From a bacterium (lineage in GTDB: Bacteria; JAJVIF01; JAGGVT01), in NCBI GenBank assembly GCA_021157815.1, contig JAGGVT010000156.1, positions 1 through 52,414 of the forward strand: 52,414 bases of DNA, in the 5' to 3' direction. The position numbers and the translations under genes are program-made. Under the pieces are notes generated by a model. That model had not been told where the DNA came from. It was given only the letters and a program-made list of their open reading frames with translations, and searched no databases. This document shows, piece by piece, positions 7,236-44,171 of this stretch (positions are counted from its first letter, which is position 1; every line of letters starts with the position of its first letter).

Positions 7236-7243
7236 TGGTATAA

Positions 7244-7978
7244 ATGAAAACGCTGATTATCATACCGACATACAAGGAAAAAGAGAATGTGCCTAATCTC
7301 GTTCCGCGAGTGCTTGAACAGGACAAGGGTGTCGAAATTCTTTTCATCGATGACAACTCACCCGATGGCACAGGTGAAATCATAGATGGAATCTGTGCTG
7401 AAAATCCGAGAGTGCATGTAATCCATCGCGAGGGGAAACTGGGACTCGGGACAGCGTATGTAACCGGATTCAAATGGGTGCTTGAAAGGGATTACGGTCG
7501 CGTTTTTGAAATGGATGCCGATTTCTCGCATGATCCGAATGACATCCCGCGGCTTATCGCGGCAAGCAACGAATATGACCTGGTAATCGGTTCAAGGTTT
7601 GTGGGCGGAATCCGTATCATGAACTGGCCTTTCAAGCGACTGCTTCTATCGATGATGGCAATGGTTTATGTCAAATGGATTACGGGGCTTAAACTTGAGG
7701 ACCCCACTAGCGGATTCAAATGCTACAACCGCCGTGTCCTTGAGGGTATTGACCTTGATCGAATACGCTCAAACGGATATTCGTTCCAGATTGAAACCAA
7801 CTACAAATCGAAACTGGCAGGATTCACAACCATAGAGGTTCCAATCGTTTTCACGGAACGCGCGGATGGTGTTTCGAAGATGAATAAGAAGATAGTTTTC
7901 GAGGCAATCTGGATAGTATATAAGTTACGAGTGTATGGAATCCTGAGATGTCTGCTCAGACGAAAAGGCAAGCCGTGA
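7244..7978 (+). CDS. Polyprenol monophosphomannose synthase (GT2, Ppm1/DPM1-like)
   Basis: IIPTYKEKEN, DDNSPDGTG, GKLGLGTAY, EMDADFSHDP, DPTSGFKCY, SNGYSFQIE, FTERADGVSKM. Confidence 0.9.
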   Translation: MKTLIIIPTYKEKENVPNLVPRVLEQDKGVEILFIDDNSPDGTGEIIDGICAENPRVHVIHREGKLGLGTAYVTGFKWVLERDYGRVFEMDADFSHDPNDIPRLIAASNEYDLVIGSRFVGGIRIMNWPFKRLLLSMMAMVYVKWITGLKLEDPTSGFKCYNRRVLEGIDLDRIRSNGYSFQIETNYKSKLAGFTTIEVPIVFTERADGVSKMNKKIVFEAIWIVYKLRVYGILRCLLRRKGKP

Positions 7979-8583: not shown

Positions 8584-11229
8584 ATGAAAGTGTTTTTTGG
8601 ATTCAAATTGATTTCCTGGGATGAACGAGGCGCGTCGCTTGTAGCCATCGCGATTATTTCTTTCTTCGTGGCGCTTGTTGCTCTGACTACACTTGCGTTG
8701 ACAAAAGCTGAAATCGAGTCTGTTGATGATCAGACCAGTGTTCAGCAGGCGAAGCTGGTTGCCGAGGTTGGATTGGAGCATGCTCTTGTGGGCCTGCGCC
8801 AGGGTCAGGACGACTATGTCCCCGAGGAAACCGAGGGTCTTCGCGATATGACCATGCAGGAGTTGTCTGATTACCTGCGCGACCCGGAATCCAACAGAGG
8901 GGTTGTTTATGATGAGGATCCCGACAGAACGTATTATTCCGCAATGGAGAAAACGAATATTGAATCGACTCCTTCCCCAACCTTCGAGACCATTCCCGGT
9001 GACAGTGCAAAGATAAACCTCACTTATGTTGATGACACAACTGTTGTTCGCGACATGAAAGAATATGATTACCAAAAACGTGTCGATAAGAATGAAAACT
9101 ACATCGTTTCACTTGGTGAGTCTCGCCGCAGCGATTCAGATGCTCGAAGCGCGATCAGCGCGAAATCATTTGAGGAATCGTCCACAATACTGGAACGGCG
9201 TGAGGTTCAGACTCAGGTTTTTAATGAAAATCATCTTGACCCGCCATATATCGAATCGGAACATGATTCCTATGACAGCAGCCTCAACAGAAGCTGGGTT
9301 GTTTCATATCCGAACGACCCATCAAACCAGTATCGTGGAATAACTGGAATCAACGTGGTAATTGACCAGGCGAGTCTTGGGCTTGGTTCCGTTGGCGATA
9401 CGCTTTCCTTCAGTTCGTGGAATGAGGCGACATCATCGTTTGACCCGCCATTTGATATTCTGTCGGGACCGCTTTCTGAAGGAACGTTGATGTATCAGTC
9501 AGCTTCACCAATTCCGACCAAGGCGATTAAAATCACGATGCTTACGGATTCGACTGATGATACGGCAAATGCCACTGCCAACTACGGATTTAAAGTAACC
9601 GGAATTGAGTACCATTATGACAGCGATGTTATCGAAGCATGTTATGAAACACCCCATCCTTATTCTGAAATTGAAAACAACATTTCATTCGCTGCCAAAC
9701 CGGATTTAATCCAGGTTATCTATTCTCCTTACGCTTTGCCAACATGGCGTGTAAATCCCATTGAGAAACCGGGGGATGGCATTGTTCTGCCCTGGGACAA
9801 GGATGAGCTTGCCACGGAGTTACCTGAAAATGAAGGCAGCGGAAGTTTAAGCGAGAGCTTGTATGAAAAGATCCGTCTTAAAAATGTAGGCGGTAATGAA
9901 TATCAGGTTATGCGGATTCATTTTGACAGTGAGTTCTATATAGAAAGCGGTGATGTACTGGATGTTTTCAATGGTAATACGGGTGCGATGATTGCATCCT
10001 ATACCGGCGCTGCCGGTGCGAATGCATACACGCCGTATGCTTTCCGTTCGAATCCCGATTTCCCGCTTGCCCTGATTCTCATGCTGCGACGCGACGGCAA
10101 CAACGATGAGCTTCCCGATCCGTATGGATATAAAGTTGATATTCTTGAATACAGTGATGAGAATGGCAACAGGGCTGTTATTTACAATCCTGTGCAGGGA
10201 ACGGCTCATGCTGAAAATATTGGATACAACGACGGCATGGCTGGAGCGATGAGAACTAATTTTGTCTTCAAGCCTGGTCCGCCTGAAATGGGTGGAACAG
10301 TTACAAACTGGAAAGTTGTATTCGACTGGGACGCGGATCTTCTGAATCTGGCGTCTGATTCAGACAGAATAATTCTCAGAAGGTCAGCCATTACAGGTCC
10401 AATGGTTAATGATTTATATTTCGTTACACCGGATGGCACTTATGGAGGCAATATTGGTGTTGTTCCGGGTTATATCAACATTAGTGAATTACGCCATTAT
10501 ATAATTGATATGGGCACAAGGTTCTGGCTTGAGATAATCACTGAATTCGATACCGAGAATTCATTCGCGAGAGTTGTGTCGAACCATGGATGGAGCATAT
10601 CTCACATTGAGGTTGCTTATAACAATGCCATTGCCGTCGATAACACAGCGCCAAGGTTGAGATCATCGTCGGTTACGCTAAAGTCGGCGGAAACCTGCGA
10701 AGCGACGCTTCTGAATCTTGAGTATCCATCATTTGGAAGCGAAGCTGATAATCGTGGTGAATGGTGGGTGAATTCAAAAGACCAGAAACAAATCCTTCTG
10801 CATTTTGACCTTGAGAGTTTCCGTCTTGAAGAGAATGACGCTATTTACATTTACAATGAAAATGGCTACTTGATGAAACTTATCCGTCCGGAAGGATATG
10901 ATGATAGTGGATTTACACATGGTGGAATATACGATCCGGACAATGATGACACGGGCGGCGGGACCATTGGATTTGAATTCCCGCCCAATCCGCCTGAAGA
11001 ATTAATCGAATCGCACGGTTGGGTTATCGTTACATCCGATTCAGCTCAGATTGTGCTTATGGGTGACGGCTCACCGAATATCGGATATTCCGGGTTCGAC
11101 ATCGACCGTATTGCATACTGGAGTCCTGTGGTAAATATTCGTAACATCATGACTGAATTCAGTTCAGATGATACGGATGAGTATTCGTTTAAGGTTACAG
11201 ATCCGGTCGATAAATTCCGTCAGTATTAA
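8584..11229 (+). CDS. PilX-like minor pilin with about 4 CUB-like repeats (putative tip adhesin)
   Basis: DERG|ASLVAIAIISFFVALV (class III signal lacking E5), QAKLVAEVGLE PilX N-terminal motif; repeats with ESEH/ETPHPY, RIHFD/LLHFD, D-x-L/I and YGFKV/YGYKV/HGWSI/YSGFDI ends. Confidence 0.7.
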   Translation: MKVFFGFKLISWDERGASLVAIAIISFFVALVALTTLALTKAEIESVDDQTSVQQAKLVAEVGLEHALVGLRQGQDDYVPEETEGLRDMTMQELSDYLRDPESNRGVVYDEDPDRTYYSAMEKTNIESTPSPTFETIPGDSAKINLTYVDDTTVVRDMKEYDYQKRVDKNENYIVSLGESRRSDSDARSAISAKSFEESSTILERREVQTQVFNENHLDPPYIESEHDSYDSSLNRSWVVSYPNDPSNQYRGITGINVVIDQASLGLGSVGDTLSFSSWNEATSSFDPPFDILSGPLSEGTLMYQSASPIPTKAIKITMLTDSTDDTANATANYGFKVTGIEYHYDSDVIEACYETPHPYSEIENNISFAAKPDLIQVIYSPYALPTWRVNPIEKPGDGIVLPWDKDELATELPENEGSGSLSESLYEKIRLKNVGGNEYQVMRIHFDSEFYIESGDVLDVFNGNTGAMIASYTGAAGANAYTPYAFRSNPDFPLALILMLRRDGNNDELPDPYGYKVDILEYSDENGNRAVIYNPVQGTAHAENIGYNDGMAGAMRTNFVFKPGPPEMGGTVTNWKVVFDWDADLLNLASDSDRIILRRSAITGPMVNDLYFVTPDGTYGGNIGVVPGYINISELRHYIIDMGTRFWLEIITEFDTENSFARVVSNHGWSISHIEVAYNNAIAVDNTAPRLRSSSVTLKSAETCEATLLNLEYPSFGSEADNRGEWWVNSKDQKQILLHFDLESFRLEENDAIYIYNENGYLMKLIRPEGYDDSGFTHGGIYDPDNDDTGGGTIGFEFPPNPPEELIESHGWVIVTSDSAQIVLMGDGSPNIGYSGFDIDRIAYWSPVVNIRNIMTEFSSDDTDEYSFKVTDPVDKFRQY

Positions 11230-11317
11230 ATTTCCCGGGTGTTTAATGAACACCTTTGGGAAACAGCCTGGGATAATGGCGTTGTATCAACTAACGCCAA
11301 ACGGGAGTAAACAGATA

Positions 11318-12946
11318 ATGAGAGCATTAAGAAGTAAAATATCTGAATTAATCTCCTCTGATGCTGGTTTTACGCTTCTTGAAGTTGCGTTTGCCGGTGC
11401 GATAATGGTTATTGTCGGACTTGCTTATCTTGGAACCATCTCTCAGAGCATTTCAATCGCGCAGCTTTACACGGATCAGAACCAGGCGAATATATTAATC
11501 GAACGCGAGATAGAAGTTCTTAGAAATACGAAATTCGATACGATTCCCTTTAAGCAAACATCAGAACCGGACAAGCTCGAGGAAGTTCCGGATTATTACG
11601 ACAATATTGCAATCGCCAATCTTGATCCACTTGAACCGGGCTTTGTCGGGTCAAGCGGCGATCAGCTTGATTGCGACGATTTCAACGTGTTCGATAGTGT
11701 TCGTGCCAGCGATGAAAATAGCAAACGATGGATGGCTGTTGAAAATGGGCCTCTTGTTACAGCCGGCAGTTTTGTGCCAAGAACTGATGAGCCAATTATC
11801 ATCGATAACCCGGACGATCCAACTGAACCAATCATTATCAATCCACAGGATTATCAGTTTCCCATGGAGATTAACAGCGAAAGCCAATATGTTTATGTTG
11901 CTTTCCAGAAGTTGCAGAAAATTCACAGGATTATTTACGATAACCGGTTTAATGTTCGAGGAGACGATTCGCTTCCTGATACGGATATTGATTACCGATG
12001 CCAGCGAAACAGCATCTGGCAGAGGGATTATCAGATTTTCATTTCAGCCGATAGTGAAATAATGCCCGGTCTCCCATTCAGGCCTGATTACAATTCAACC
12101 GAGGTAATCCAGGAAGAAACGGAGCTGGGATACGGTTCAACGGGATTAATTGAGGTTTACAATAACTTTGAAGAACCGCTTGAAGCTACCGTTCTCGGTG
12201 TGGCGAATATATCTGTGGAAACGGATTTTGATTCCACATACCATTATCCTTATGCAACCGAGCTTGAAGCGTATGGTTACAAACTGGCAACATCCTATAA
12301 GGAGCGGTATGTGTTCGAAAATGGCGATGTTCATGTAGGCAACTATATAATGTTCATGCCCAAATACCTTGATTCCGGTTTCGACCTTTTCAGGCGGATT
12401 TATCTGGTTGAGGGTGAAACTGATTTCCCGCCCACACTGCAAAAACAGCCTTTGTACAGGATTCAGCTGAAGATTTACATGCATGACGATTCACGCAACA
12501 CGGATAGTTTTGTGAAGGAATTCTGGTGGCAGGAGGACGACAAGGAAATCATGGAATTTACCATGACCCTGGCAAGGAAAGTTACACCTGCTCAGGATAA
12601 CCTTCCGGGCCTGCAGGATTTGCCAAGGCATACCTACTATTATAACGATGAAGATGCCGAGTTTTCCTATACTATTCCGGGTGCGAATCGAATAAGGGCG
12701 CATTTTAGCACATTCGAACTGCAGAATTATCCGGATACCGATTACTTGGAGTTTTATGACAAGACGGGTGACCAGTACGGTGGACAGTATTTTGGGACCA
12801 TGATATCGTTATTCAGCCTTGGCCCATACAGCCCGTGGGTTGATGGTGATACAATTAAAATTCAATTCAAATCAGATGATTATGCGTCCAGTATTCCGAA
12901 CGCGAATCTTGACGGATTTGAAGTTGACTTTGTTGAAATTGATTAA
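11318..12946 (+). CDS. PilV-like minor pilin with discoidin/F5-8-like and C-terminal CUB-like domains
   Basis: SDAG|FTLLEVA prepilin motif; GGGAG RBS before ATG 11318; C-terminal YTIPGANRIRAHFSTFEL...DYLEFYD...SPWVDGDTIKIQFKSD...GFEVDFVE. Confidence 0.75.
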   Translation: MRALRSKISELISSDAGFTLLEVAFAGAIMVIVGLAYLGTISQSISIAQLYTDQNQANILIEREIEVLRNTKFDTIPFKQTSEPDKLEEVPDYYDNIAIANLDPLEPGFVGSSGDQLDCDDFNVFDSVRASDENSKRWMAVENGPLVTAGSFVPRTDEPIIIDNPDDPTEPIIINPQDYQFPMEINSESQYVYVAFQKLQKIHRIIYDNRFNVRGDDSLPDTDIDYRCQRNSIWQRDYQIFISADSEIMPGLPFRPDYNSTEVIQEETELGYGSTGLIEVYNNFEEPLEATVLGVANISVETDFDSTYHYPYATELEAYGYKLATSYKERYVFENGDVHVGNYIMFMPKYLDSGFDLFRRIYLVEGETDFPPTLQKQPLYRIQLKIYMHDDSRNTDSFVKEFWWQEDDKEIMEFTMTLARKVTPAQDNLPGLQDLPRHTYYYNDEDAEFSYTIPGANRIRAHFSTFELQNYPDTDYLEFYDKTGDQYGGQYFGTMISLFSLGPYSPWVDGDTIKIQFKSDDYASSIPNANLDGFEVDFVEID

Positions 12947-13088: not shown

Positions 13089-13757
13089 GTGGCAAGAGCG
13101 AAATATCAAAATATCCTGACACCATTCCTCAATGAGGATGGGTTTACCTTGCTTGAGGCAGTTATCGCATCCGCGATAACTGCTGGAACGCTGGTTATTG
13201 TTCTGCTGTTCAGCATGCGCTCATTTGAAATAGCGAGCGAGATAAATACTGTGAACGATGTCAATCATTCGTTCAGGCGCACCCAGAGAGCTTTTGTGCG
13301 TGATGTTCAGATGGCGCAGTATTTCTTTTTTGGCGCTGATGTGGATAATGAAAACAATCAGATTCCAAATGAGTTTATTGACAGAAGAGTTTTGACAGTT
13401 GGCCGCGAGAATGAAGATGGTGAGATGATCTGGTCGCGGTACGCGGTAAAAATTGGTACCGAGACAACAATATATTATCTTCTTGTTACTACAAACGAAC
13501 TTGAAGGCGCTGAACATTTCGAGACGAATATCATCGCCACAAATGTGCAGGACATGTATTTCGTTTACTATGACGAGGATGATATTGAAACAACAAAGGC
13601 TGAGGATGTTCGTCGAATTGAAATGACACTTGTTCTCGAAGAGAATAATGTTACAGAAATGATGCATTTCTCTTCGACTCTCAGGGGAAAGAATCTTGGA
13701 GTCGCCCTTCCTGATGAGAATATTGAAGTTCATCAGAATACGAACTTTGTGAAATAA
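13089..13757 (+). CDS. PilW/PulJ-like minor pilin
   Basis: NEDG|FTLLEAVIA; FVRDVQMA; IATNVQDMYFVYYD...VRRIEMTL C-terminus typical of PilW-like proteins; GTG start. Confidence 0.75.
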   Translation: MARAKYQNILTPFLNEDGFTLLEAVIASAITAGTLVIVLLFSMRSFEIASEINTVNDVNHSFRRTQRAFVRDVQMAQYFFFGADVDNENNQIPNEFIDRRVLTVGRENEDGEMIWSRYAVKIGTETTIYYLLVTTNELEGAEHFETNIIATNVQDMYFVYYDEDDIETTKAEDVRRIEMTLVLEENNVTEMMHFSSTLRGKNLGVALPDENIEVHQNTNFVK

Positions 13758-13768
13758 AACAGCGAATT

Positions 13769-14302
13769 ATGAACTTTTTTGAAAGACATACAAATCACCT
13801 TTTGGGCAATGCCTACGATGACAGCGGTTATACGTTAGTCGAAATGCTGTTTGTATGCATGATTATCGTAACAATTGCGATGATGAGCATGGGAGCATAC
13901 AGCAAGCAGAGGAAGTTCGGAATTGAGTCGATTTGTGTCACCAAACTCAAGCAGATTGCGCAGTATCAGGAATCATACAGAGACATTGGCGACCCGTCGT
14001 TGAATCCTGATGCATCATACGGAACGTTTTTCAATTTGCAGAATGCCGGGTTCATTCCATCGTGCTTTGTGTCGGCTGATAATGAAGCTCACGATGTCGA
14101 AGCGTTTATTAGGTATTACAAGATAGAGATTGTACGATCACCGACAGGACTGACCGAGGAGCCTGATAGAAACCAATATATGGTATTTGCTTCACCGATA
14201 GGGGCGCCGTACAAGAAAATGCGGATTTTCATGATGCAGGAAGATGGTGAGGTTTATTTCTTTTCAAACAATACTGACGGTGCGCGTATAGTCTGGGAAT
14301 AA
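13769..14302 (+). CDS. Type IV pilin paralogue 1
   Basis: DDSG|YTLVEMLFV prepilin motif plus hydrophobic alpha1. Confidence 0.85.
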   Translation: MNFFERHTNHLLGNAYDDSGYTLVEMLFVCMIIVTIAMMSMGAYSKQRKFGIESICVTKLKQIAQYQESYRDIGDPSLNPDASYGTFFNLQNAGFIPSCFVSADNEAHDVEAFIRYYKIEIVRSPTGLTEEPDRNQYMVFASPIGAPYKKMRIFMMQEDGEVYFFSNNTDGARIVWE

Positions 14303-14346
14303 TGTGCATATTACTGTCAGCGGTTTCCGCGGGACAGGAGCCTGAT

Positions 14347-14847
14347 ATGAAGTTCACTGAAATGAGAGACATATTGAAAGTACATGATGACAATGGATAT
14401 ACAATCCTTGAGGTTATCATGGTGGCGATGATAATCGGCATATTGATTACCATAGGCACGGCGCATTACCTCGAAGCCAGACGGCTGGCATCGGAGCATC
14501 TATGCGCCACAAGGCTTGCCAATATCGATGTGTATGAAAAAATGTATTATCGCCAATATGCGACATACGCCACATTTCAGGAACTTCAGGATGAGGGTTT
14601 CATTGATGCGGCATATACAGCGCATGATGATGTTCTGTCCAATGCAACACCATATATCCCCGAGTATTTCATGACGTTTAATATCTCAAGTGATACATAC
14701 CAGGTGTCGGCACAGACGGTTCATGGTGATTTCAACGCCGTTTATGTTCGCTGGCGCATGTCCGGCGGACTTGAAGACAAACGGGGCATGTTTGTTGATC
14801 AGACGGGAGTTGTCAGATATCTCTATAACAGACGTCCCGTGTTTTAG
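14347..14847 (+). CDS. Type IV pilin paralogue 2
   Basis: DDNG|YTILEVIMV; CAGGAG RBS before ATG 14347. Confidence 0.85.
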   Translation: MKFTEMRDILKVHDDNGYTILEVIMVAMIIGILITIGTAHYLEARRLASEHLCATRLANIDVYEKMYYRQYATYATFQELQDEGFIDAAYTAHDDVLSNATPYIPEYFMTFNISSDTYQVSAQTVHGDFNAVYVRWRMSGGLEDKRGMFVDQTGVVRYLYNRRPVF

Positions 14848-14850
14848 TTT

Positions 14851-15399
14851 ATGACTGGAGAAAGAGTGTTTAATCATTACGGCATATTCAGTAATTCAGA
14901 TTTGGAAAGCGGCATGACGCTGGCAGAGATTCTGGTTGTCATTGGGATTATCTTGATAATCGGGACACTCGCAATACCGAGTATCGTGCAGGTAAAGCGC
15001 AGGCATTTCGAGGATATCGCGATGCTTAAGCTCAAGGATGCCGCGAATGCAGAGAAACGCTACTTTCAGCAGTACAACAGGTTCGGGAAATATTATGAGC
15101 TTGTTGATGCCGGATTCCTGCCACATGGTTACACAACGAGGCTTGAATACTGGGGCCCAATTACAGGAATAAGCACAAGACCGTTCATTGAAGCGTACAG
15201 TGTTCGATTCCTGGTGCCGGAAAGTCCGAATTCGCTCTATTTTAAAATCGTGGCGTATCCTGTTGATGAGGCGCTTGGGCTCAGGGCATTTAATGTTAAT
15301 ATGTATCTGAACTTCGAGGGCAGGCCGGATTTAATATACCAGGACCCGCCTTTGAGAAATGGATTGCTGGATGACGGTTTGCCGATAGGGCATATTTAA
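14851..15399 (+). CDS. Type IV pilin paralogue 3
   Basis: LESG|MTLAEILVVIGIILIIGTLAIP. Confidence 0.85.
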   Translation: MTGERVFNHYGIFSNSDLESGMTLAEILVVIGIILIIGTLAIPSIVQVKRRHFEDIAMLKLKDAANAEKRYFQQYNRFGKYYELVDAGFLPHGYTTRLEYWGPITGISTRPFIEAYSVRFLVPESPNSLYFKIVAYPVDEALGLRAFNVNMYLNFEGRPDLIYQDPPLRNGLLDDGLPIGHI

Positions 15400-15464
15400 T
15401 AAAATAGTCAGTTTTGGGTAATAACTATATGGAAGAAAGGTCGGAATAAATCAGGAAGAATCGG

Positions 15465-15929
15465 ATGGCTTTGAGAATGGACAGAAACAGGCAGAAAGAA
15501 TCAGGATTCACGCTAATCGAGGTGCTGGTAGTTGTTGGTATTCTTGGAATCCTCGCGGTTCTGGCGATTCCATCACTGACCGGGACTGAAAGGTCGGCGA
15601 GGGAATCGGCGTGTGTCCGGGGTTTGCGCTCACTGGCTGATGCGGAAGAGATTTACTATGTACATCAGAAGCATTATCCCGGCGGCGAGGATGGCGTCCA
15701 CTGGTTTCGCCTTAGAAGCGTAGATGCCATCGACCCGAAAGTCTATAAAGGAAGCAAGAATGATTCGTTCATTCGCGACTATTCACTGTTATTCTATTCG
15801 ATTGGCCCATGGGCGCAGGCGTATTCGGTTGTGGCATACCCGATTAATCCTGAGCTGGGGATGCGGACTTTTATTATGAAAGATGACGGTATCATCAGAA
15901 ACACTGATAACGAGCCGATTAGGGGCTAA
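15465..15929 (+). CDS. Type IV pilin paralogue 4
   Basis: KESG|FTLIEVLVVVGILGILAVLAIP. Confidence 0.9.
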   Translation: MALRMDRNRQKESGFTLIEVLVVVGILGILAVLAIPSLTGTERSARESACVRGLRSLADAEEIYYVHQKHYPGGEDGVHWFRLRSVDAIDPKVYKGSKNDSFIRDYSLLFYSIGPWAQAYSVVAYPINPELGMRTFIMKDDGIIRNTDNEPIRG

Positions 15930-15980
15930 TTTTTACAAGGCTGTTGTTTGATAAAAAAACAAAAAGAGCGGAAGCGCGTT

Positions 15981-16475
15981 ATGACTGAAAACTTTAACAG
16001 AAAGAAAGACAAAAACGGATTCACGCTGGTGGAGATACTGGTCGTTGTTGGAATCCTTGGCATAATCACAGTACTTGCGATTCCGGCATATTCGAGAGTG
16101 CAGAATTCCGCTCTGGAAGCGGGAGCGGTAAAAGGCCTGGAAGCGGTCTATAGCGCTTATCAGCTTTACTATCGCGACCACGGATATTATCCGCCCGCGC
16201 GATCAACATATACAACAGAGTTCTATCATCATGTCAGGATGTATCTTCCCAGAGACCTTACAGATGCTTCCGTTACAGACAGTTTTATAAAAGGCTACGA
16301 GTTAAGGGCGCTGACAAGGCCATTCGCTGGTGGTGTGGTTGAGAATGGGCTCATACGGGGTTCGCATTATTTTACAATCATGGCGATTCCGGTGAACACA
16401 AATCGAGGTTTAAGGACGTTCTTTATCGAACCGAACGGAATTGTTACTGACGGCAATACTGAAAACCCGATTTAA
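15981..16475 (+). CDS. Type IV pilin paralogue 5
   Basis: DKNG|FTLVEILVVVGILGIITVLAIPAY; ATG 15981 preferred over the TTG start. Confidence 0.9.
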   Translation: MTENFNRKKDKNGFTLVEILVVVGILGIITVLAIPAYSRVQNSALEAGAVKGLEAVYSAYQLYYRDHGYYPPARSTYTTEFYHHVRMYLPRDLTDASVTDSFIKGYELRALTRPFAGGVVENGLIRGSHYFTIMAIPVNTNRGLRTFFIEPNGIVTDGNTENPI

Positions 16476-16515
16476 TGAAATCGGGATGATGAAAATAAAT
16501 TCGAGGTATCGTTGC

Positions 16516-16992
16516 ATGAAAAGCTCGAAAGACATATTTAAAAATAACAGTGGTTTCACGCTGATAGAAATCCTGCTTGTTGTTGCGATAATCGCGATTC
16601 TGGTAACGATGGCGATTCCGCAAATTACCGGAACCCGCCATTCAAGCTATGAACTAAGCGCGATGCGTGCGTTGAAAGCTGTAGGCGCGGCGCAGCAGGC
16701 ATACAATAACGCATACGGCACTTTCATTCCGTATGAATGGCTGCAGGCGCGTAATTATATCTCGCCGAACTATCTCAAAGGTTCCGTTTCGGACAGGGGC
16801 AGGATAGCGAAGCATTATTCAATCAGGGTAATTATCGATGGCCCTATCACGACCCCGAGAGGTGTGAGATATACGGGATTCAGTGTAATAGCTGTCCCCG
16901 ACAGGGGTTTCGGGTTGAGGTATTTCAGATTGCAGGAGGATGGCGAAATTGAGCAAAGCGCGTCGGGAGCAGGGGGCTGGGAAGTAAGGTAG
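16516..16992 (+). CDS. Type IV pilin paralogue 6
   Basis: NNSG|FTLIEILLVVAIIAILVTMAIP; GAGGT RBS before ATG 16516. Confidence 0.9.
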   Translation: MKSSKDIFKNNSGFTLIEILLVVAIIAILVTMAIPQITGTRHSSYELSAMRALKAVGAAQQAYNNAYGTFIPYEWLQARNYISPNYLKGSVSDRGRIAKHYSIRVIIDGPITTPRGVRYTGFSVIAVPDRGFGLRYFRLQEDGEIEQSASGAGGWEVR

Positions 16993-17072
16993 TTAAATTA
17001 GAACGGCGGTTTTTCGCCTGAGATAAAATATTTTCTGAAGCTCGATCAACTAACAGTGGAGCTGCAATAGAA

Positions 17073-17549
17073 ATGGTGAATCGATTGAAAATAATAAAAA
17101 ATGATGAGGGTTTCACCCTCTTGGAAATACTTGTCGTGGCATTTATAATTTCAATTCTGGTCACGATGGGAATAACCAGTTTCATCAAAACTCGCCAGCG
17201 TGGAATAGAAGCCGCGGGCATGCATGGGATGCAGGCTCTTGGCGCGGCGATGCAGGCGTATCACAACGACTACGGCCGATTCACGAATTTCTATTCACTG
17301 CAGCCGGCATATATTGAAGCTGGTGTAAGGCTGAGCGATACATATCCGCCGAGGCCAAATCCGTTTATCAGGCACTTTTCGCTCTCATGGACCTTTGCTT
17401 CCGCACAACCGCATATATTCAGTATTAATGCGATTGGGATATATGACCACTGGCGCGCTGGAAATGACAGAATTGAGTTGATGATTACTAATAATGGAGT
17501 ATTGAAAAAACGTCAGGCGGGTGTGGGTGAGTTTGTGCCTGCGAATTAA
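17073..17549 (+). CDS. Type IV pilin paralogue 7
   Basis: NDEG|FTLLEILVVAFIISILVTM. Confidence 0.9.
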   Translation: MVNRLKIIKNDEGFTLLEILVVAFIISILVTMGITSFIKTRQRGIEAAGMHGMQALGAAMQAYHNDYGRFTNFYSLQPAYIEAGVRLSDTYPPRPNPFIRHFSLSWTFASAQPHIFSINAIGIYDHWRAGNDRIELMITNNGVLKKRQAGVGEFVPAN

Positions 17550-17565
17550 GTGTAACTGACTGGCA

Positions 17566-17735
17566 GCAGCCCGGTTTCTCATTAACCGGGATTATGACAA
17601 GTTAAGTTGTGTTTTCCCCGGTTAATGAGAAACCGGGCTACGAAGAAGTAAGTGGCATAACTGGATTTTTTGATTGAAGAGGTTATGTGCGGGTTGAGTT
17701 AGATTTTTCCCGGGAAATGGATTCCCGGGCTACAT
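17566..17735. repeat. REP-like doublet (17566-17641) plus single unit (17705-17735) inside the pilin array
   Basis: GCAGCCCGGTTTCTCATTAACCGGG / CCCGGTTAATGAGAAACCGGGCTAC (24/25 inverted); minus strand ATGTAGCCCGGGAATCCATTTCCCGGGAAAA. Confidence 0.8.
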
Positions 17736-17776
17736 AGAAAAAAACGACTGGTTCAGTGAAAGTGTTGTGAGGTAAT

Positions 17777-18247
17777 ATGAACTTCATAAGAAATAAAATG
17801 AACAATGATAGCGGTTTTACGCTTATCGAAATGGTGCTTGTGGCGCTGATGGTTCTGATTCTAGCCACGATGGCCATTGCGAGCATGCGCAGGGCGCGTG
17901 AGGCAGGCCTTGAAACGGCCGCCCAGAAAGCTCTGAAATCGCTGGCTGAATCGCAGGAAATGTTCTACCAGGACAACTATGATTACGCGGATGATTTCAG
18001 CCAGCTTCTTCAGCGATATCTGCCGCGAACATATACTGACGCGGACAGGTCGAATGGTTTTATTCGTTCCTACAGCGTCCTGTTCCAGGTAAATGGCACA
18101 CCTGTACTTGGAACGAGCCGTATCGCCCAGAACAGTGTCTATCCCAATTACACGATATACGCAGTTCCGCTTGCCAGTAATCTCTCGCTAAGAACCTATT
18201 GGATAACGCAGTCAGCGCGTGTTTCCGATTATGTGGCACTGCCATGA
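17777..18247 (+). CDS. Type IV pilin paralogue 8
   Basis: NDSG|FTLIEMVLVALMVLILATMA; GAGGT RBS. Confidence 0.9.
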   Translation: MNFIRNKMNNDSGFTLIEMVLVALMVLILATMAIASMRRAREAGLETAAQKALKSLAESQEMFYQDNYDYADDFSQLLQRYLPRTYTDADRSNGFIRSYSVLFQVNGTPVLGTSRIAQNSVYPNYTIYAVPLASNLSLRTYWITQSARVSDYVALP

Positions 18248-18260
18248 CAGAGGACAACCG

Positions 18261-18734
18261 ATGAGATTGAATATTACAAATAGATATTTGAAAGACGAAA
18301 AGGGATTTACCCTTATCGAGGTTCTCACAGTAGCCGCGATGATTGCCATACTCGCGACAGTGGCACTCGCCAGCATGCATAGAAGCAGGGAGGCGGCTTA
18401 TGAAGCGCAGGCAATCGGCGCGCTTCGAACGCTGTCAAGCATGGAATATGTTTATTTCTTCGATAACAAAGTGTTCGCTGACTGGCATCAACTGCAGGCT
18501 GTGGGTGATTTGGTCGATTCGGATTATGTCAAAGCGGACGATATGGATAACGCGTTTGACCATCCGATCGCAATGAAATACTCGCTGCATTTTGTAATCA
18601 ACGATAACGGCAGTGATTTTACAATTTACGCTTATCCCCAGTTGACAGCGCATTATTACTTGAGAGCTTTCAGTGTTTTTAGTGATGGCGCGATTAATAA
18701 CGCGGGATTTGAATTGAACCCAACATCGCCGTAG
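18261..18734 (+). CDS. Type IV pilin paralogue 9
   Basis: DEKG|FTLIEVLTVAAMIAILATVA; GAGGA RBS before ATG 18261. Confidence 0.9.
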   Translation: MRLNITNRYLKDEKGFTLIEVLTVAAMIAILATVALASMHRSREAAYEAQAIGALRTLSSMEYVYFFDNKVFADWHQLQAVGDLVDSDYVKADDMDNAFDHPIAMKYSLHFVINDNGSDFTIYAYPQLTAHYYLRAFSVFSDGAINNAGFELNPTSP

Positions 18735-18820
18735 CGGTGTTGAAATAGAAATTATTATTTTGTTTAACGAAAGAAACTGATTCTTGCTGATATGAGATTC
18801 AGATAACATCGGAGGCAGCG

Positions 18821-19258
18821 ATGATAAAAATGTTTAATAATCTTCTCCACAGGAATGACCGGGGATTTACACTACTGGAACTTCTGGTGGTCAGTTCGAT
18901 TATCGGAATTCTTGCGGCGATAGCCATCCCATCGCTTGGCGGGTCGCGTCGAAGCGCGTTGCAGGCGGCTTGTGTCAAGGGATTGAAATCAATTTGCGAC
19001 AGTGAGGAGATGTTCTATCGCCTGAACGGGCGCTACACGGATAACTGGAGCGAGCTGGATGACTTTCTGCCAAGCGCGTATTCAAGCTATGCGATGAAGC
19101 GTTATTTCATCGAGTCATACAGCCTGCAATTTTCAAGTGATCCATCTCGACAGACTTTTACCGTTTATGCATGGCCTTACTATGGCAAGATGCGACTTGG
19201 CACTTTCAAGATAAACGATGAGGGTGTTGTTACCACAGAGACCAACAGGCCGGTTTAA
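18821..19258 (+). CDS. Type IV pilin paralogue 10
   Basis: NDRG|FTLLELLVVSSIIGILAAIAIP; GGAGG RBS. Confidence 0.9.
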   Translation: MIKMFNNLLHRNDRGFTLLELLVVSSIIGILAAIAIPSLGGSRRSALQAACVKGLKSICDSEEMFYRLNGRYTDNWSELDDFLPSAYSSYAMKRYFIESYSLQFSSDPSRQTFTVYAWPYYGKMRLGTFKINDEGVVTTETNRPV

Positions 19259-19290
19259 TGATATTTCAGTATTTTGCTTTTTGGAAAGTC

Positions 19291-19899
19291 ATGTTGAAGA
19301 ACATTTTTCTACATAATGAATCCGGCCATACATTGGTTGAAATCCTTGCTGTTTGCGGCATAATAACGATACTTGCGACCATTCCGGTAGCGTATATGCG
19401 TGAGGCGAAAATCCGTGCGAATGAAACAGCCGCTCTGGGCGCGCTTAATCAAATGGCAGCCGCGTATGAGATGTACCGCGTGGTTGGCGACCGCCAGCGC
19501 TTCTATCCGCATTTCTATTCACATGGTTTAATCACTGATACGGTTACTTTTCACAATCCTGAGGAAATATGGGATGAGCTAATCAGGCAGGGACTTTTGC
19601 CGTACAAGTACGCAGCTAATAATCACAATACGCCGAACCTGCTGGCACCAGGTTATTCTTTTTCAATCTACCCGGTAAATTATGACGTAGTGGATAATTA
19701 CAGCATTAATCCGTGGGATAGTTATGCCTTCGCGCTGATTCCATTTCCCGGAAGCCGTCAACCCAGAACAATGGCGCTTATTCATGGTGAGTATTTCGAT
19801 CATTATTTTACAAACGCCCGCGCGTATAAAACATCATCAACATCGTCGGACATTTCAGACGCGCGGATATTCACTTTCAAGGACCCTGAGCCTGATTAG
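19291..19899 (+). CDS. Type IV pilin paralogue 11 (His at +1); start may be ATG 19258
   Basis: NESG|HTLVEILAVCGIITILATIP; ANETAALGAL motif. Confidence 0.85.
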   Translation: MLKNIFLHNESGHTLVEILAVCGIITILATIPVAYMREAKIRANETAALGALNQMAAAYEMYRVVGDRQRFYPHFYSHGLITDTVTFHNPEEIWDELIRQGLLPYKYAANNHNTPNLLAPGYSFSIYPVNYDVVDNYSINPWDSYAFALIPFPGSRQPRTMALIHGEYFDHYFTNARAYKTSSTSSDISDARIFTFKDPEPD

Positions 19900-19921
19900 A
19901 AACAGGATTAAATCAGGTGGC

Positions 19922-20518
19922 ATGCGAGTTTTGCTTTTGAAATTGGAAAATAGAAAATCGATATCTAACAACGACATGGGGTTCACTTTGCTTGAGCTCC
20001 TTATCGTTTGCACTATCATTGGCATATTGGCAACGATGTCGGTCTCACTTGTAAGTCGCGCGCGAGTGAACGCTCGTGAGACTGCGGCAGTTGTCACACT
20101 GAATTCATTCGCAGGCGCCTGGGAATCATACTGGGCACGACACGGCACGTATCCTCACTGGGGCGAGGGCATGAAATATTCCGATCCGCAGCAGCTGTTC
20201 AGAACGCTTACTCGTGAGGGATATCTGCCATCAGCCTATAGCCAGGTGCCGTATTATGAACCTGACAAGCAGTTTTACCAAATCACCGATGACTATGCTC
20301 TTGAGATTTTTCCGTTCACTGACGGCGACGGAAGACGTGCGCCATCTAATTACTACTGGCTGCTCTTGCATCCACTGGGATTTCAAAGACAACAGGGATA
20401 TCTTGGAATAGGAACTGATTCGAGTTGTGGAAAAGCGGCGGTTAGGGTGCGTCTTGGTGACTCGAGAGGTGATATTAACCAGTTTACGATTTATAGCCTT
20501 CACCACAGGGAAAATTAA
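19922..20518 (+). CDS. Type IV pilin paralogue 12
   Basis: NDMG|FTLLELLIVCTIIGILATM; AGGTGG RBS before ATG 19922. Confidence 0.85.
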   Translation: MRVLLLKLENRKSISNNDMGFTLLELLIVCTIIGILATMSVSLVSRARVNARETAAVVTLNSFAGAWESYWARHGTYPHWGEGMKYSDPQQLFRTLTREGYLPSAYSQVPYYEPDKQFYQITDDYALEIFPFTDGDGRRAPSNYYWLLLHPLGFQRQQGYLGIGTDSSCGKAAVRVRLGDSRGDINQFTIYSLHHREN

Positions 20519-20879: not shown

Positions 20880-22073
20880 GTGGCTTTACCGTTTTTAAAC
20901 ACCACCCCCAAGAAAGCTCTGGGTTTGCATATTGGCGCCAGTCAAATCAGAGTGGTGGAGATTGAACGGGGCAAGGCTGATTTGATGCTGACGAATATCG
21001 GCTGGATTGAAACGCCGTCAGAAGCGTATGTGGGCAGCCACCTGGAAAACCCCAGCATAATCGCTGGCGCGGTTTCCCGTCTGCTTGCATCGCGAAACAT
21101 CCGAACGAAACGTGTGTTGGCGACAATTGATGCAAACGATACTATCGCGCGAACGATATTGCTTCCATCCATGGCAAAAAAAGATCTTAGAAAAGCGATT
21201 ATTTTCGAGATGGAAGCTTCTCTGCCATCAACTGGTGAAGAGAATATTCTCGATTACCAGGTTCTCAGGGTTTTCGAAAATCCCGAGGATAACTCCGAGC
21301 AGGTGTCAGTGTTGATTCTCTCGACCCAAAGGCAGAATACTGTCGCCGTGGCCGAGGCTATGACACAGGCTGATTTGAAGCCGGTTGCGATTGACCTTAC
21401 TCCGGTTGCCTCTTTCCGCGCTGAGAAGCGAAGTGACACATATTTGGAAAATGGAGAGGACCTGATAATAATCACGATTAATGACCGATGCACGGACCTC
21501 ACGATTATCAACCAGGGTAACGTTAGATTTGTGCGTTCACTGCCGATAGGTTCCGCAAATATTCTAGATGCCATAGGTGAAAAGCCCTTGTTCAACGATG
21601 TGGTTGACCGACTGGCAAAGGAGCAGGAAAAAGAACATGAACCCGCTGATGAACCTGAGGATGAAGTGAAAGCGTTTGACCCGTTCGGCGGTTCTGATGC
21701 TCCATCACCATTTGCAGGCAGCGCCGGCCAGCCCATGATGATGGATAAAGACGAAAAACCGGGTATCGGTCGCATTGAAAGTTTGATTACTGAACTTGCC
21801 GACGAAACTCTGAATACAATGCGATACGGCCAGTCTATTGGCAAGGAACAGACCGATGTCAAGTACGCGATGTTAAACGGTTATTTCCCATACAAGGAAG
21901 AATTTATTTCAAGTTTGAAGGAAAAACTTGGCCAGGACGTTTACCCGGGAGACCCGTTCTCCTCTCTTGATTTGACAAGTCCTGGACTGGAGGAAGAATT
22001 GATTGACAGGTTTGCTCCAAACTTTTCTGCGGCATGCGGTCTTGCGCTGAGGGGGGTGGGTGAGTATGAATGA
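20880..22073 (+). CDS. pilM: Type IV pilus assembly protein PilM (actin-like fold)
   Basis: GLHIGASQIRVVE, IARTILLP, ILDYQVL, LKPVAIDL, FVRSLPIG, C-terminal FSAACGLALRG; first gene of an MNOPQ-like run. Confidence 0.85.
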   Translation: MALPFLNTTPKKALGLHIGASQIRVVEIERGKADLMLTNIGWIETPSEAYVGSHLENPSIIAGAVSRLLASRNIRTKRVLATIDANDTIARTILLPSMAKKDLRKAIIFEMEASLPSTGEENILDYQVLRVFENPEDNSEQVSVLILSTQRQNTVAVAEAMTQADLKPVAIDLTPVASFRAEKRSDTYLENGEDLIIITINDRCTDLTIINQGNVRFVRSLPIGSANILDAIGEKPLFNDVVDRLAKEQEKEHEPADEPEDEVKAFDPFGGSDAPSPFAGSAGQPMMMDKDEKPGIGRIESLITELADETLNTMRYGQSIGKEQTDVKYAMLNGYFPYKEEFISSLKEKLGQDVYPGDPFSSLDLTSPGLEEELIDRFAPNFSAACGLALRGVGEYE

Positions 22074-22656
22074 TGATTATCTCATTAATTTACTCCCGTC
22101 AGAATATTTGCCCAAGCCGGAATTCAAAGGATTTCCGCTTTTTGTTATCGCTGTTCTTGTGCTTGTTGGCGTGTTTGTTTTTTTGGATAACACAAGAATA
22201 ACGGGCAGAATTAATACACTTAAGGAATTAAAAAAAAATCAAACAGCGTTGGTTAATAGGCGAACTCCGCTGGCATTGGAGGCTCTGGACGTTCAGGCGC
22301 GAAGCAGAGTGCTTTTTTCCTATGGTGTTTCCATTTGGTCAATGTTGCATCAGATCCCTCCCTGGATTGATGTCTATAATGAGATTGAGGAGAGTATTCC
22401 AAAGGGAATGTGGATTGAGAGCCTGACACTTGTCGGAGGGGGCGAAAGGAAATGGCCCAGTTTTACCATGGTGGGTATTGTCGCGGGAAACAAACCGGGG
22501 ACTGTATTGGATTTCTATGCATTAATGTTGGAACCGGATAGCAAGTTTGAGAAAGTCAAGATATCCGGTTATACATTTATCAAGCATGACAGGCAGGACG
22601 CGGTCATGTTTAATATGAGGTTCTCAATAAAGAAATCCGGATTTGAGGGTTTTTAA
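22060..22656 (+). CDS. pilN: PilN-like protein
   Basis: INLLP PilM-binding motif, single TM, IPKGMWIESL. Confidence 0.8.
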   Translation: MSMNDDYLINLLPSEYLPKPEFKGFPLFVIAVLVLVGVFVFLDNTRITGRINTLKELKKNQTALVNRRTPLALEALDVQARSRVLFSYGVSIWSMLHQIPPWIDVYNEIEESIPKGMWIESLTLVGGGERKWPSFTMVGIVAGNKPGTVLDFYALMLEPDSKFEKVKISGYTFIKHDRQDAVMFNMRFSIKKSGFEGF

Positions 22657-22674
22657 CGCAAGGAGCATTGGACT

Positions 22675-23466
22675 ATGCTGAAGATTTACCTACAGATATT
22701 TGGCACGCTTGCGTTGGGTTTGATAATTCTGTTGAATTATAACGTCTTTATGAAAAAACCCAACAAAGAGAAGATAGTGGAACTGCAAAAAGAGATGAAA
22801 ACTCTTGAGGTAACAGCGCAGACACTTGACAAAGTACTGAATCATCGCCCTCATTTTGGCACGCTTGAGAATTTTCAATCGCAGGATCTCGATGATGTTC
22901 GTGTGTTTTATGCGGACTCTTTTAATGAACCGGCGTTTATGGGTAAGCTGCAAAAGCTGGTTGACCTTTCAGGATGCACAACAAACGGAATTATCGTTGG
23001 GAATATCAAAGGAGTATCGAATCCTTTGAAATATGAGTTTTTTAAAACCAAACAGAAGGAAAACCTGGAAAAGAGCATTAACTCGTTTGTAAGCACCATG
23101 GATGAATATGCCGGTAATACCGCAAAATGGCAGTCGATTGTTGGTGATAACAGCGATTATTCATCAAGATTGGTGTTTTACCATTCGATATCAGGAGGAA
23201 AGAAATTTCCATCTTCGATGAATAAGGGATTTGAGGTTCACAGGTTTAAACTGAATCTTAAGGGCAATTACACAAGCTGCAAGAAATTCCTGTATCTCGT
23301 CAGCAGAAACAGGCCATTTACGGAAGCCATTGTTCATTCATTTGTACCAATAAATGAAAAGCAGGGCGTTGAAAAGATGTTTGCCTGCCGCGTGACAATC
23401 CTTACGTATAGGGACAAGAATGAGAAGATGCACCCAATACAGAAAATGGTGGATGTTCAGGTTTAA
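22675..23466 (+). CDS. pilO: PilO-like protein
   Basis: N-terminal TM plus coiled coil, FKLNLKGNYTSCKKFL motif; position after pilN. Confidence 0.7.
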   Translation: MLKIYLQIFGTLALGLIILLNYNVFMKKPNKEKIVELQKEMKTLEVTAQTLDKVLNHRPHFGTLENFQSQDLDDVRVFYADSFNEPAFMGKLQKLVDLSGCTTNGIIVGNIKGVSNPLKYEFFKTKQKENLEKSINSFVSTMDEYAGNTAKWQSIVGDNSDYSSRLVFYHSISGGKKFPSSMNKGFEVHRFKLNLKGNYTSCKKFLYLVSRNRPFTEAIVHSFVPINEKQGVEKMFACRVTILTYRDKNEKMHPIQKMVDVQV

Positions 23467-23515
23467 CGGCACCAGGGGGTGAAGTTAACCTAACAGAGTT
23501 GTCAGAGGTAAAGAG

Positions 23516-24448
23516 ATGAACAAGAAAAATACAAAAAGAACAGACAAGTGGGCTATGTTGCTCATAGTTGCCGGAATCATTCTTGGGATAAATCTTTTCG
23601 TTGCGGTGTTGAGCCCTGACTGGACGAATACAGTGCAGGAAAACGCTGTAGGCAGGCTGGATGCATATTTCAATAGCAAAGTGGTTTTAAGCGAAAGTGA
23701 TACGCATGCGGTTACCGCCGGGCAGGGTGGAGTTAACGTTCAAAGAGCCAGAGATAATGCTAAGAGAGCAAGGAGAGATATCGAGGGTGGAGGTTCTCTG
23801 AACTCAGGAACTACAGAAAGCGCGGAAACACAATCTCCAGCAGCAGGATCAATTGCTGGTGAAAAACCGCCGCCACCGCCTCCTGCTGATTCGCCTGCTA
23901 AAAAAGGCGCCAAAGGCAAACAGGAAATCGACCCGGTAGTTCTGAAAAAAGCGCTTAAATATTTCCAGGATTCACTTTCTGACAGGGATGTTATCTGGGA
24001 AGGGCAAACCGAACCTGACAGGCCTTACGTCTCAAAATCATTCAGAGATAATCCGTTCGACAAGGTTGAGGAAATAAATATTGGCTCGGTTCTAGAAGGA
24101 CTAAATCAGATTCCGTCGGAACCATTCTATCCTCCGCCGGGTGAGTCTAAAAGAATCACCCCGGACGAACTTGAGGAATATCTTAAAACCGTCAGCCTTC
24201 AGGGTATCATTGTTATCGATGATCGGTTTTACGCCGTTATGAGATCTGGCCCAAGACATTTCACCAGAGCGGTGGGTGATGAATTCAAGGACAAGTTTGT
24301 TATTAATGTGGTTGATATAAGCTTTGAAAACGTATTGCTCTCAGATGAATTTGGCAACAAGGGCCTGATTGGTTTTGATTACGCGCGCGGATTTGAGGCT
24401 CAATCCATTGATAATGTGCTGTATTTATCGCACTATGGTAAGAAATGA
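23516..24448 (+). CDS. PilP-like (GspC HR-like) protein with TM anchor and Pro-rich linker
   Basis: RDNPF motif, C-terminal LQGIIVIDDRFYAVM...VGD...VVDI beta domain; between pilO and the secretin. Confidence 0.6.
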   Translation: MNKKNTKRTDKWAMLLIVAGIILGINLFVAVLSPDWTNTVQENAVGRLDAYFNSKVVLSESDTHAVTAGQGGVNVQRARDNAKRARRDIEGGGSLNSGTTESAETQSPAAGSIAGEKPPPPPPADSPAKKGAKGKQEIDPVVLKKALKYFQDSLSDRDVIWEGQTEPDRPYVSKSFRDNPFDKVEEINIGSVLEGLNQIPSEPFYPPPGESKRITPDELEEYLKTVSLQGIIVIDDRFYAVMRSGPRHFTRAVGDEFKDKFVINVVDISFENVLLSDEFGNKGLIGFDYARGFEAQSIDNVLYLSHYGKK

Positions 24449-44120: not shown

Positions 44121-44171
44121 AAGTTCAGATTTAATTATACCGTAGTTTGGATATTTTATAAATATCCAGTT

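Follow-up and report, generated by a model that had tools for sequence, protein, structure and literature searches.

Type IV filaments are usually described as one major pilin together with a minor-pilin complex of four or five members. In Thermus thermophilus one machine makes more than one filament, the pilS copies of Neisseria lack an N-terminus and a promoter and act as donors in gene conversion, and shufflons require an invertase and inverted repeats. The closest described situation to the locus analysed here is that of Synechocystis, where 14 pilins are assigned to six families, including "auxiliary pilins" that resemble the major pilin, and where, as in other cyanobacteria, pilin genes are scattered over several loci with two alternative priming sets (PMC13759059). 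Tandem pilA genes of myxobacteria are reported to be few and lineage-specific, with four homologues in Stigmatella (PMC3776727, PMC6060248). The present locus is a tandem array of 12 small pilin genes in a stretch of 52,414 nucleotides (the window; contig JAGGVT010000156.1 of assembly GCA_021157815.1, GTDB lineage Bacteria; JAJVIF01; JAGGVT01), which is one contig of a 3.2-Mb metagenome-assembled genome that is 91% complete (hereafter G000). The organism is known only from metagenomes, and the system is known here from its genes alone.

The 12 pilins are a fixed set of distinct specialised parts, evolutionarily static and not a fast-changing disguise kit, because all twelve are kept in the same order throughout the sampled genomes of the phylum. 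With a probability of roughly 0.6, this set is ancient and made up of distinct PilA/PilE-like accessory (minor) pilins that serve one type IVa-pilus-like machine, in which a K/J-type tip and a shaft pilin encoded at an unlinked locus complete the fibre.

The twelve-gene array and its conservation

Positions 13769-20518 hold 12 consecutive plus-strand genes in the program-made list of open reading frames (ORFs), exactly where an initial annotation, made from the letters of the window, had placed them. All 12 carry the motif G|[FYMH]T[LI]xE (the bar marks the cleavage site) and a hydrophobic stretch of about 20 residues, which confirms that they are full-length prepilin genes. The looser form G|x[TS]xxE is present in the 12 and in both larger pilins with a glutamate at mature position 5 (Glu5, E5), and Glu5 is invariant in an alignment of 150 small pilins. 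The Pfam family N_methyl (PF07963; TIGR02532) was matched by 11 of the 12 genes at E<=0.005 and by eight above the curated cut-off; the gene at 14851 gave no Pfam match, yet the motif G|MTLAE is there. Matches in NCBIfam were sub-threshold and N-terminal only, to GspG, PilA (Myxococcus), ComGC and similar families.

The heads share the loose skeleton that had been noticed at first reading, which is visible in the consensus of the 12 and in that of 150 relatives (E..A...L, EE.Y, F..L, FI..YS, A.P, LRTF....DG). Within the genome the 12 heads are 13-37% identical (mean 22%) and 130 to 190 amino acids (aa) long, and the N-terminal portion of helix alpha1 (alpha1N) is 25-64% identical among the paralogues (mean 42%). 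When cysteine positions were checked, a C-terminal pair of the proteobacterial D-region disulfide type was present in none of the 12, as had been noted; this disulfide is not universal among type IVa (T4a) pilins and is also missing from Thermus PilA4. At the DNA level the paralogues have diverged even in alpha1, again as first described, their likeness being confined to the alpha1-coding stretch (60-78% identity); repeats longer than this were not found.

In 80 comparison loci from other bacteria, a biased sample in which the counts were motif-based, the longest tandem run of prepilin-motif ORFs was six, so the array is more than chance would give. Runs of six and of five were each found once, runs of four twice, of three 14 times, of two 19 times and of one 36 times; seven loci had none.

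Several of the long ORFs probably start too far upstream (e.g. at 19784), and the likely starts give predicted leaders of 12-20 aa. Measured from a stop codon to the Gly(-1) codon of the following gene, and with the leader counted in, the spacing has medians of 53-135 nt across genomes, and the genes therefore form a compact operon. Shine-Dalgarno matches before the array genes are 4-5 nt long or missing, the best being the GGAGG of OG12 (the positions are numbered OG3 to OG14; Table 1). A scan of the array gave 19 terminator-like sites where 14.3 were expected, none of them a convincing terminator between genes; sigma-54 promoters, searched by pattern, gave no signal either in the window (14 matches, 23.6 expected) or at L106, the locus of the unlinked pilin described below (nine matches, 6.5 expected). 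The 227-nt gap between OG9 and OG10 contains, at 17568-17739, an inverted repeat whose 36-nt arms are 83% complementary, together with a hairpin unit, CCCGG...CCGGG, that is directly repeated. The gap looks like a local insertion of a small repeat element because the same junction is shorter in the same-genus genome G001 and in other genomes.

In the collection used, class and phylum hold the same 14 species genomes, and the array is present in all 14. Wherever a contig covers the array, the 14 Glu5 pilins occur in the same order and as 1:1 orthologues, with exactly one gene per position per genome under best-match assignment; two apparent gaps were odd motifs (G|TTLLE in G002 and G|YNLPE in G005). 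No copy-number change was found in the array among the 14 genomes, so that the comparison of array content proposed in the initial annotation shows variation neither in number nor in order. Homologues of the 881-aa gene at the 5' end of the pilin block were matched in 14 of 14 genomes and lie beside the array where contigs allow. Ten relatives' loci reach past OG14: pilM follows the array in all ten, and the first two ORFs after it (pilN/O-like) are conserved in all ten, while the third was found only in G001 with the query used. The secretin gene lies downstream in eight of these loci; L015 and L023, the remaining pair, stop short of it or gave no match.

In a quick tree built from 156 small pilins with 100-195 mature residues per row, which left out the truncated OG12 of G009 and the two large groups, every one of the 12 positions formed a separate clade. 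A second tree was built with IQ-TREE (LG+C20+F+G4) from 85 rows, namely the 12 positions of G000, G002, G003, G007, G008 and G011 plus 13 unlinked copies; ultrafast bootstrap (UFBoot) support was 96-100 for each of the 13 groups, and the number of label changes, 12, was the minimum possible. With one clade per position, one gene per genome and the same order, the duplications therefore predate the ancestor of the phylum as sampled. Descent from one ancestor by duplication, as the initial annotation had it, stays plausible for homologous full-length pilins of one head family, whereas a recent or ongoing local expansion is contradicted by the 1:1 orthology and the UFBoot values. The annotation had named as its own counter-hypothesis that the paralogues are orthologues of distinct minor pilins, and the tree comes close to this; however, no named minor-pilin family takes them in.

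Nei-Gojobori ratios of nonsynonymous to synonymous substitution (dN/dS) between G000 and its congener G001 were 0.05-0.32 for all 14 genes, with unsaturated dS of 0.13-0.45; only this pair was used because deeper pairs were saturated (dS above 1 or undefined). All 14 genes are under gene-wide purifying selection. Across the 14 genomes, the trees and the dN/dS values, no array turnover, gain, loss, gene conversion or diversifying signal was found, and the proposal that the array is a variable repertoire for evading phages or predators is unsupported for want of any turnover, gene conversion or diversifying signal. That proposal, in which alternative subunits change the fibre surface, would account for many divergent heads lying intact in one place. 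Against it stand the strict 1:1 orthology in fixed order across the phylum, the gene-wide purifying selection, the constant copy number in 14 genomes and the lack of recombination substrates beyond alpha1 or of an invertase, so it is largely refuted and can be given very little credence. A repeat search of the window found no matching inverted repeats flanking the array genes, which all lie on one strand, and no recombinase family was found among the 25 large window ORFs scanned with Pfam. Two exclusions made at first reading hold up on the same evidence: the genes are not pilS-like cassettes, as all N-termini are present, all copies are full length and they do not share DNA identity outside alpha1, nor are they a shufflon.

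A profile of the 150 small pilins matched solved pilins over alpha1 only (Geobacter PilA, Myxococcus PilA, PilA4 and PulG), and the matches of OG12 in other phyla, led by Elusimicrobiota, were at the level of alpha1 only. When a profile of the heads alone was run against 1.84 billion representatives, 778 proteins passed E<=1e-3 and 59 passed E<=1e-10, with none reaching E<=1e-30; the top 150 were sorted with hidden Markov models of the groups. Prepilin-type proteins falling cleanly into one of the 12 array groups accounted for 39, and two more without a prepilin motif were also assigned to an array group; two prepilin-type matches fitted no group and were too few and too distant to serve as outside pilins, 13 were of the unlinked-pilin type without a prepilin motif, and 94 were weak matches without the motif. 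Among the top 150 matches there are thus orthologues of the array pilins and no close relatives from outside.

Some secreted proteins that have an ordinary signal peptide also carry pilin heads without alpha1N, 2-6 of them in tandem (P0066, P0067, P0069, P0070, P0086 and P0103). In G000, outside the window, a 329-aa ORF (G000:C162:17352-18284) has two heads that are closest to the unlinked pilin. Weak similarity to ComP_DUS, Pilin_GH and DUF2950 was found by Pfam in six of nine tandem-head proteins scanned.

The unlinked paralogue and the proposed roles of the subunits

The family profile also matches small pilins outside the array, a thirteenth paralogue that the initial annotation had missed. 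G000 has two copies, C150:13522-14046 (L106:6523-7047) and a second on contig C90, both among unrelated genes. The C150 gene is monocistronic, with a near-consensus sigma-70-type promoter (TTGACT-17-TATAAT), a 9-nt Shine-Dalgarno sequence (AAGGAGGTG) 8 nt before its GTG start, a 7-aa leader and, just after the stop codon, a terminator made of a 12-bp GC-rich hairpin and a U-run (-27.1 kcal/mol, z -3.6, equalled by 0 of 200 shuffles). All 14 genomes have the unlinked group. In the 85-row tree its branches are the shortest in the family, i.e. it evolves most slowly, and lineage-specific duplicates occur in this group alone (two copies for G000 and G001, tandem pairs for G003 and G008). The major pilin gene of a T4a system has a leader of under about 10 aa and its own strong promoter and terminator, and encodes the most abundant subunit. 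The unlinked paralogue has the gene-level traits among these; the array genes have leaders of 12-20 aa, weak or no Shine-Dalgarno sequences and no intergenic terminators. The unlinked pilin is therefore the best major-pilin candidate, being the slowest-evolving and the sole duplicated member, with a strong promoter, Shine-Dalgarno sequence and terminator and a short leader, and from these gene features it is the best candidate for the shaft subunit of the array's machine. Some metagenomic relatives of this pilin (P0132, P0146, P0151, P0174 and P0203) keep the head and the C-terminal part of alpha1 (alpha1C) and have the leader and cleavage motif replaced by long N-terminal extensions with ordinary transmembrane segments; these could be real variants or gene-call artefacts.

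The pilin block as a whole comprises 15 genes, and so is longer than first annotated: directly upstream of the 12 small pilins lie two larger E5 pilins, the 525-aa OG1 and OG2 with a GspJ/PilW fold, and before them the E5-less 881-aa gene. Position 5 was not Glu in seven of seven readable N-termini of 881-aa protein homologues (an eighth locus, L012, had no readable N-terminus), and the protein had no Pfam or NCBIfam match. A missing Glu5 marks the GspK/PilX tip subunit, which has a large inserted domain and makes up the tip together with the I and J proteins, and by its E5-less N-terminus the 881-aa protein appears to be of the GspK/PilX class. For OG1, a profile of 10 orthologues gave weak though consistent matches to CUB domains over positions 419-520 (cubilin at 6.4e-4; MASP, C1r, TSG-6 and Kremen at E 0.03-0.9), which suggest a CUB-like C-terminal domain, and its N-terminus gave a weak NCBIfam match to GspI. 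By eye, resemblances to the CUB-like segment were seen in both large proteins (in the 881-aa protein, HFDSEF...ESGD and HFDLESFRLEENDAIYIYNENGY); profile matches, all weak, came from the OG1 C-terminus only. The Protein Atlas returned for the two big proteins only a sub-threshold F5/8 type C cluster (scores 0.83 and 0.77), which was not used as evidence.

Structural models were made with AlphaFold2 (AF2) for OG12 and OG2 only, and the pilin fold of the other 11 small pilins rests on alignment to OG12. The OG12 model, with a mean predicted local distance difference test score (pLDDT) of 84.5, has a helix at residues 3-54 and four strands; the top Foldseek match was Thermus PilA4 (6xxd; query TM-score, TMq, 0.68), followed by P. 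aeruginosa PilE and a Shewanella pilin, with PulG at rank 26 (TMq 0.34). The predicted fold of OG12 is thus PilA4/PilE-like and agrees with the general build of type IV pilins, in which the hydrophobic alpha1N leads into an amphipathic alpha1C that packs against an antiparallel beta-sheet. The OG2 model (pLDDT 87.5) had 14 Foldseek matches in the PDB at E<=1e-3, and the 12 shown were all XcpW/EpsJ-type minor pseudopilin chains (TMq 0.40-0.50); GspJ followed at rank 20 (E 0.011) and Thermus TTHA1219 lower. By this predicted fold OG2 is of the GspJ/PilW class, with the two-beta-sheet pilin fold, and a profile search of the PDB with OG2 found nothing.

On the reading preferred here, the operon would encode in order a GspK/PilX-like 881-aa protein, a CUB-like large pilin, a GspJ/PilW-fold pilin, the 12 small pilins, PilM, PilN/O-like proteins and a giant AMIN-domain secretin, with the ATPases, platform protein and prepilin peptidase supplied from elsewhere in the genome. 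The peptidase would cleave all pilins, as their motifs indicate, and the three large proteins with their binding modules would form the priming or tip complex, to judge by the J-like fold, the missing E5 and the CUB-like matches. Each of the 12 separately conserved pilins would enter the fibre in a few copies, close to the tip or along the shaft, and have a conserved role of its own, and the bulk of the fibre would be polymerised from the unlinked paralogue, whose gene features suit that part. Since each of the 12 is conserved individually, at least 12 non-redundant subunit roles in one machine are implied.

In the genome of G000, ATPase genes comprise three long PilB/GspE-like, three PilT-like and one CpaF-like, and there are three PilC-like platform genes, TadB/C-like genes and four secretins; the PilB-, PilC- and PilT-like genes lie away from the array locus. 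Several points weigh against the preferred reading. The A24 prepilin peptidase (PF01478) was not found in G000 (91% complete), although it was found in nine of the 14 phylum genomes, including same-genus G001. Gene starts, and hence leader lengths, are predicted, and the division into major and minor roles is drawn from gene features and conservation only. With three PilB/GspE-like ATPases, three PilC-like proteins and four secretins in the genome, the unlinked pilin could serve another type IV filament system. OG12 also looks like a major pilin (130 aa, alpha1N 91% conserved, best structural match a major pilin). With two of the 15 proteins folded, some of the 12 could be core minor pilins of the FimU/GspH class, which has a strand swap, or of the PilV/GspI class, whose small head pairs with J. 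Lastly, the matches of the OG2 model are pseudopilins of type II secretion systems (T2SS), so a secretion role is conceivable.

One alternative is a shaft made as a heteropolymer, in which several or all of the 12, OG12 above all, would be bulk subunits and the unlinked pilin would belong to another system or be one more component. Such a shaft would fit the PilA-like head family and E5 shared by the 12, their compact operon with assembly genes, and the conservation of OG12 together with its match to the major pilin PilA4; a heteropolymeric type IV pilus with two major pilins has been solved for a monoderm (PDB 8pfb), and in a genome with three PilB-like and four secretin genes the unlinked pilin could work elsewhere. 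Equivalent packing in one lattice would however be hard for subunits with a mean alpha1N identity of 42% (25-64%) and heads of 130-190 aa, the array's ribosome-binding sites are weak beside that of the unlinked pilin, and no case of more than two or three shaft pilins was found in the literature searched. A heteropolymeric shaft is therefore held to be rather unlikely.

An endopilus of the secretion type is more doubtful still: here a short T2SS-like pseudopilus, with a K/J/I-like tip and many G-like subunits, would push substrates or polymers through the giant secretin, and there would be no surface pilus. The match of the OG2 fold to T2SS XcpW/EpsJ/GspJ agrees with this, as does the finding that GspG is the best NCBIfam match of several small pilins, below cut-off (for OG6, 51.5 bits against 88.85), and glycosyltransferases flank the locus. 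PilM_2 and an AMIN-domain secretin, which are present at the locus, nevertheless typify T4a pili (PilMNOPQ) and not T2SS (GspL/M/C); the genome has three PilT-like ATPases, and the OG12 fold is nearer to PilA4/PilE than to PulG.

By analogy with the flagellum, where rod and hook proteins are paralogous, the 15 co-operonic pilin-like proteins might not be interchangeable but be added one after another in a definite sequence, each used once or in a small constant number, giving a filament segment of defined composition, a "programmed" type IV stalk or pseudopilus; this is a speculative and improbable suggestion. Gene order would then be assembly order, with the K/J-type complex and the CUB-like modules at the tip and the unlinked pilin extending the shaft beneath, details that we would likewise hold with little confidence. 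If true, a programmed stalk would take positional subunit identity far beyond the known four-member tip complex.

Layout of the locus

Coordinates of the pilin block, the downstream assembly genes and neighbouring genes are collected in Table 1. The likely start of OG14 removes any real overlap with OG13. Across the phylum OG12 has a mean identity of 91% in alpha1N and 58% in the head.

Table 1. Pilin block, assembly genes and neighbours in the window; where the program's ORF probably starts too early, the likely start follows in brackets.
Feature	Positions	Strand	Remarks
Multi-pass membrane protein and family-2 glycosyltransferase	5841-7978		membrane protein 464 aa, no family match; just upstream of pilin block
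881-aa pilin-like protein	8584..11229	+	N-terminus ERG|ASLVAIAIISFF, no Glu5; large C-terminal region of unknown fold
Large pilin OG1	11168..12946 (11318)	+	G|FTLLEV; mature 525 aa; dN/dS 0.16
Pilin OG2	13089..13757	+	mature 204 aa; GspJ/PilW-class core minor pilin by predicted fold
Small pilin OG3 (no. 1)	13769..14302	+	G|YTLVE; mature 157 aa; dN/dS 0.14
Small pilin OG4 (no. 2)	14302..14847 (14347)	+	G|YTILE; mature 149 aa; dN/dS 0.32
Small pilin OG5 (no. 3)	14851..15399	+	G|MTLAE here, G|WTLIE in most relatives; mature 161 aa; dN/dS 0.16
Small pilin OG6 (no. 4)	15465..15929	+	mature 140 aa; dN/dS 0.05
Small pilin OG7 (no. 5)	15948..16475	+	mature 151 aa; dN/dS 0.09
Small pilin OG8 (no. 6)	16441..16992 (16516)	+	mature 145 aa; dN/dS 0.10
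Small pilin OG9 (no. 7)	17073..17549	+	mature 145 aa; dN/dS 0.16
Small pilin OG10 (no. 8)	17777..18247	+	mature 143 aa; dN/dS 0.12
Small pilin OG11 (no. 9)	18219..18734 (18261)	+	mature 142 aa; dN/dS 0.16
Small pilin OG12 (no. 10)	18821..19258	+	mature 130 aa; shortest array member and the best conserved
Small pilin OG13 (no. 11)	19258..19899	+	G|HTLVE; mature 190 aa; dN/dS 0.21
Small pilin OG14 (no. 12)	19784..20518 (19922-19931)	+	mature 178 aa; dN/dS 0.22
pilM	20880..22073	+	Pfam PilM_2, E 2.5e-25
Three ORFs at the pilN/pilO/pilP places	22060..24448	+	198, 263 and 310 aa; putative names, from position and size
Secretin, PilQ-like	24675..29198	+	1507 aa; Pfam Secretin (6e-39), Secretin_N, AMIN
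fliG and fliF	43125-45791	-	Pfam

The three ORFs at the pilN/O/P places gave no Pfam match. The secretin is unusually long, with its Secretin domain at residues 1323-1481, AMIN near the N-terminus and about 1000 residues without a family match. Just upstream of the pilin block, the multi-pass membrane protein and the glycosyltransferase were considered as a periplasmic pilin glycosylation pair (GT-C-like membrane protein plus GT2), and this candidate was rejected: the membrane protein adjoins the array in only three of 14 genomes and is therefore outside the conserved system.

Elsewhere in G000, about 10 dispersed prepilin-type proteins of 330-390 aa and three longer ones (460-533 aa) share a near-identical alpha1 (FTLIELLVVITIIGILAAIALPNY...). 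They lie on contigs C17, C29, C44, C84, C85, C87, C96, C103, C141 and C205, and their heads are unrelated to those of the array, which they match in alpha1 only. With fliG and fliF present in the window, flagella are probable beside the several type IV filament systems.

Comparison with known systems

Neither a pilin array this large nor the pili of this lineage were described in the literature searched, although a published account may still exist. Throughout an uncultured phylum, 12 additional PilA-like pilins, each conserved individually, have been retained in fixed order and in an assembly operon, from a time before the phylum's last common ancestor. If confirmed, the machine would rank with the type IV filament systems richest in subunits, and would lend itself to testing how filament function or architecture is specified by minor or auxiliary pilins. 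The locus also illustrates that a conspicuous tandem array can stay unchanged in evolution, in which it is the reverse of an antigenic-variation locus.

With Neisseria pilE/pilS and R64-type shufflons the array has in common that many pilin-related sequences lie in one region; unlike theirs, its copies are complete and static, with no recombinase or repeat system. The core minor pilin sets GspH-I-J-K of T2SS and FimU-PilV-PilW-PilX of T4a pili (PDB 3ci0, 5vtm and 6utu) find a parallel in the GspJ/XcpW fold predicted for OG2 and in the 881-aa protein without Glu5, and in GspK/GspJ-type sets and here alike the K- and J-type genes stand at the 5' end of the pilin operon. Those sets differ in having four members (plus PilE in Pseudomonas), whereas here 12 further small pilins follow, and the proteins at the K and I positions are here 881 and 525-592 aa long, with extra domains that are CUB-like or of unknown kind.

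Thermus thermophilus PilA1-PilA6, with two major pilins, PilA4 in the wide and PilA5 in the narrow pilus (6xxd and 6xxe), resembles the present system in that PilA4 is the best match of OG12 and in having several small, disulfide-poor pilins, but its paralogues are fewer and form no 12-gene tandem family. Myxobacteria likewise show duplication of major-pilin-type genes in tandem; the reported pattern resembles the duplicates of the unlinked pilin in G003 and G008 and not the 12-gene array.

With Synechocystis the locus shares a large pilin set for a shared T4a pilus machine, auxiliary pilins that resemble the major pilin, and core minor pilins of the K/X and J/W classes with bulky domains; pilin-like proteins without alpha1N occur both there and in the phylum of the array. 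A second K/J set, by contrast, was not seen in the window. Unlike the Synechocystis genes, the 15 genes described here stand in one operon with pilMNO and a secretin, 12 of them belong to one PilA-like family, and their order is fixed throughout a phylum.

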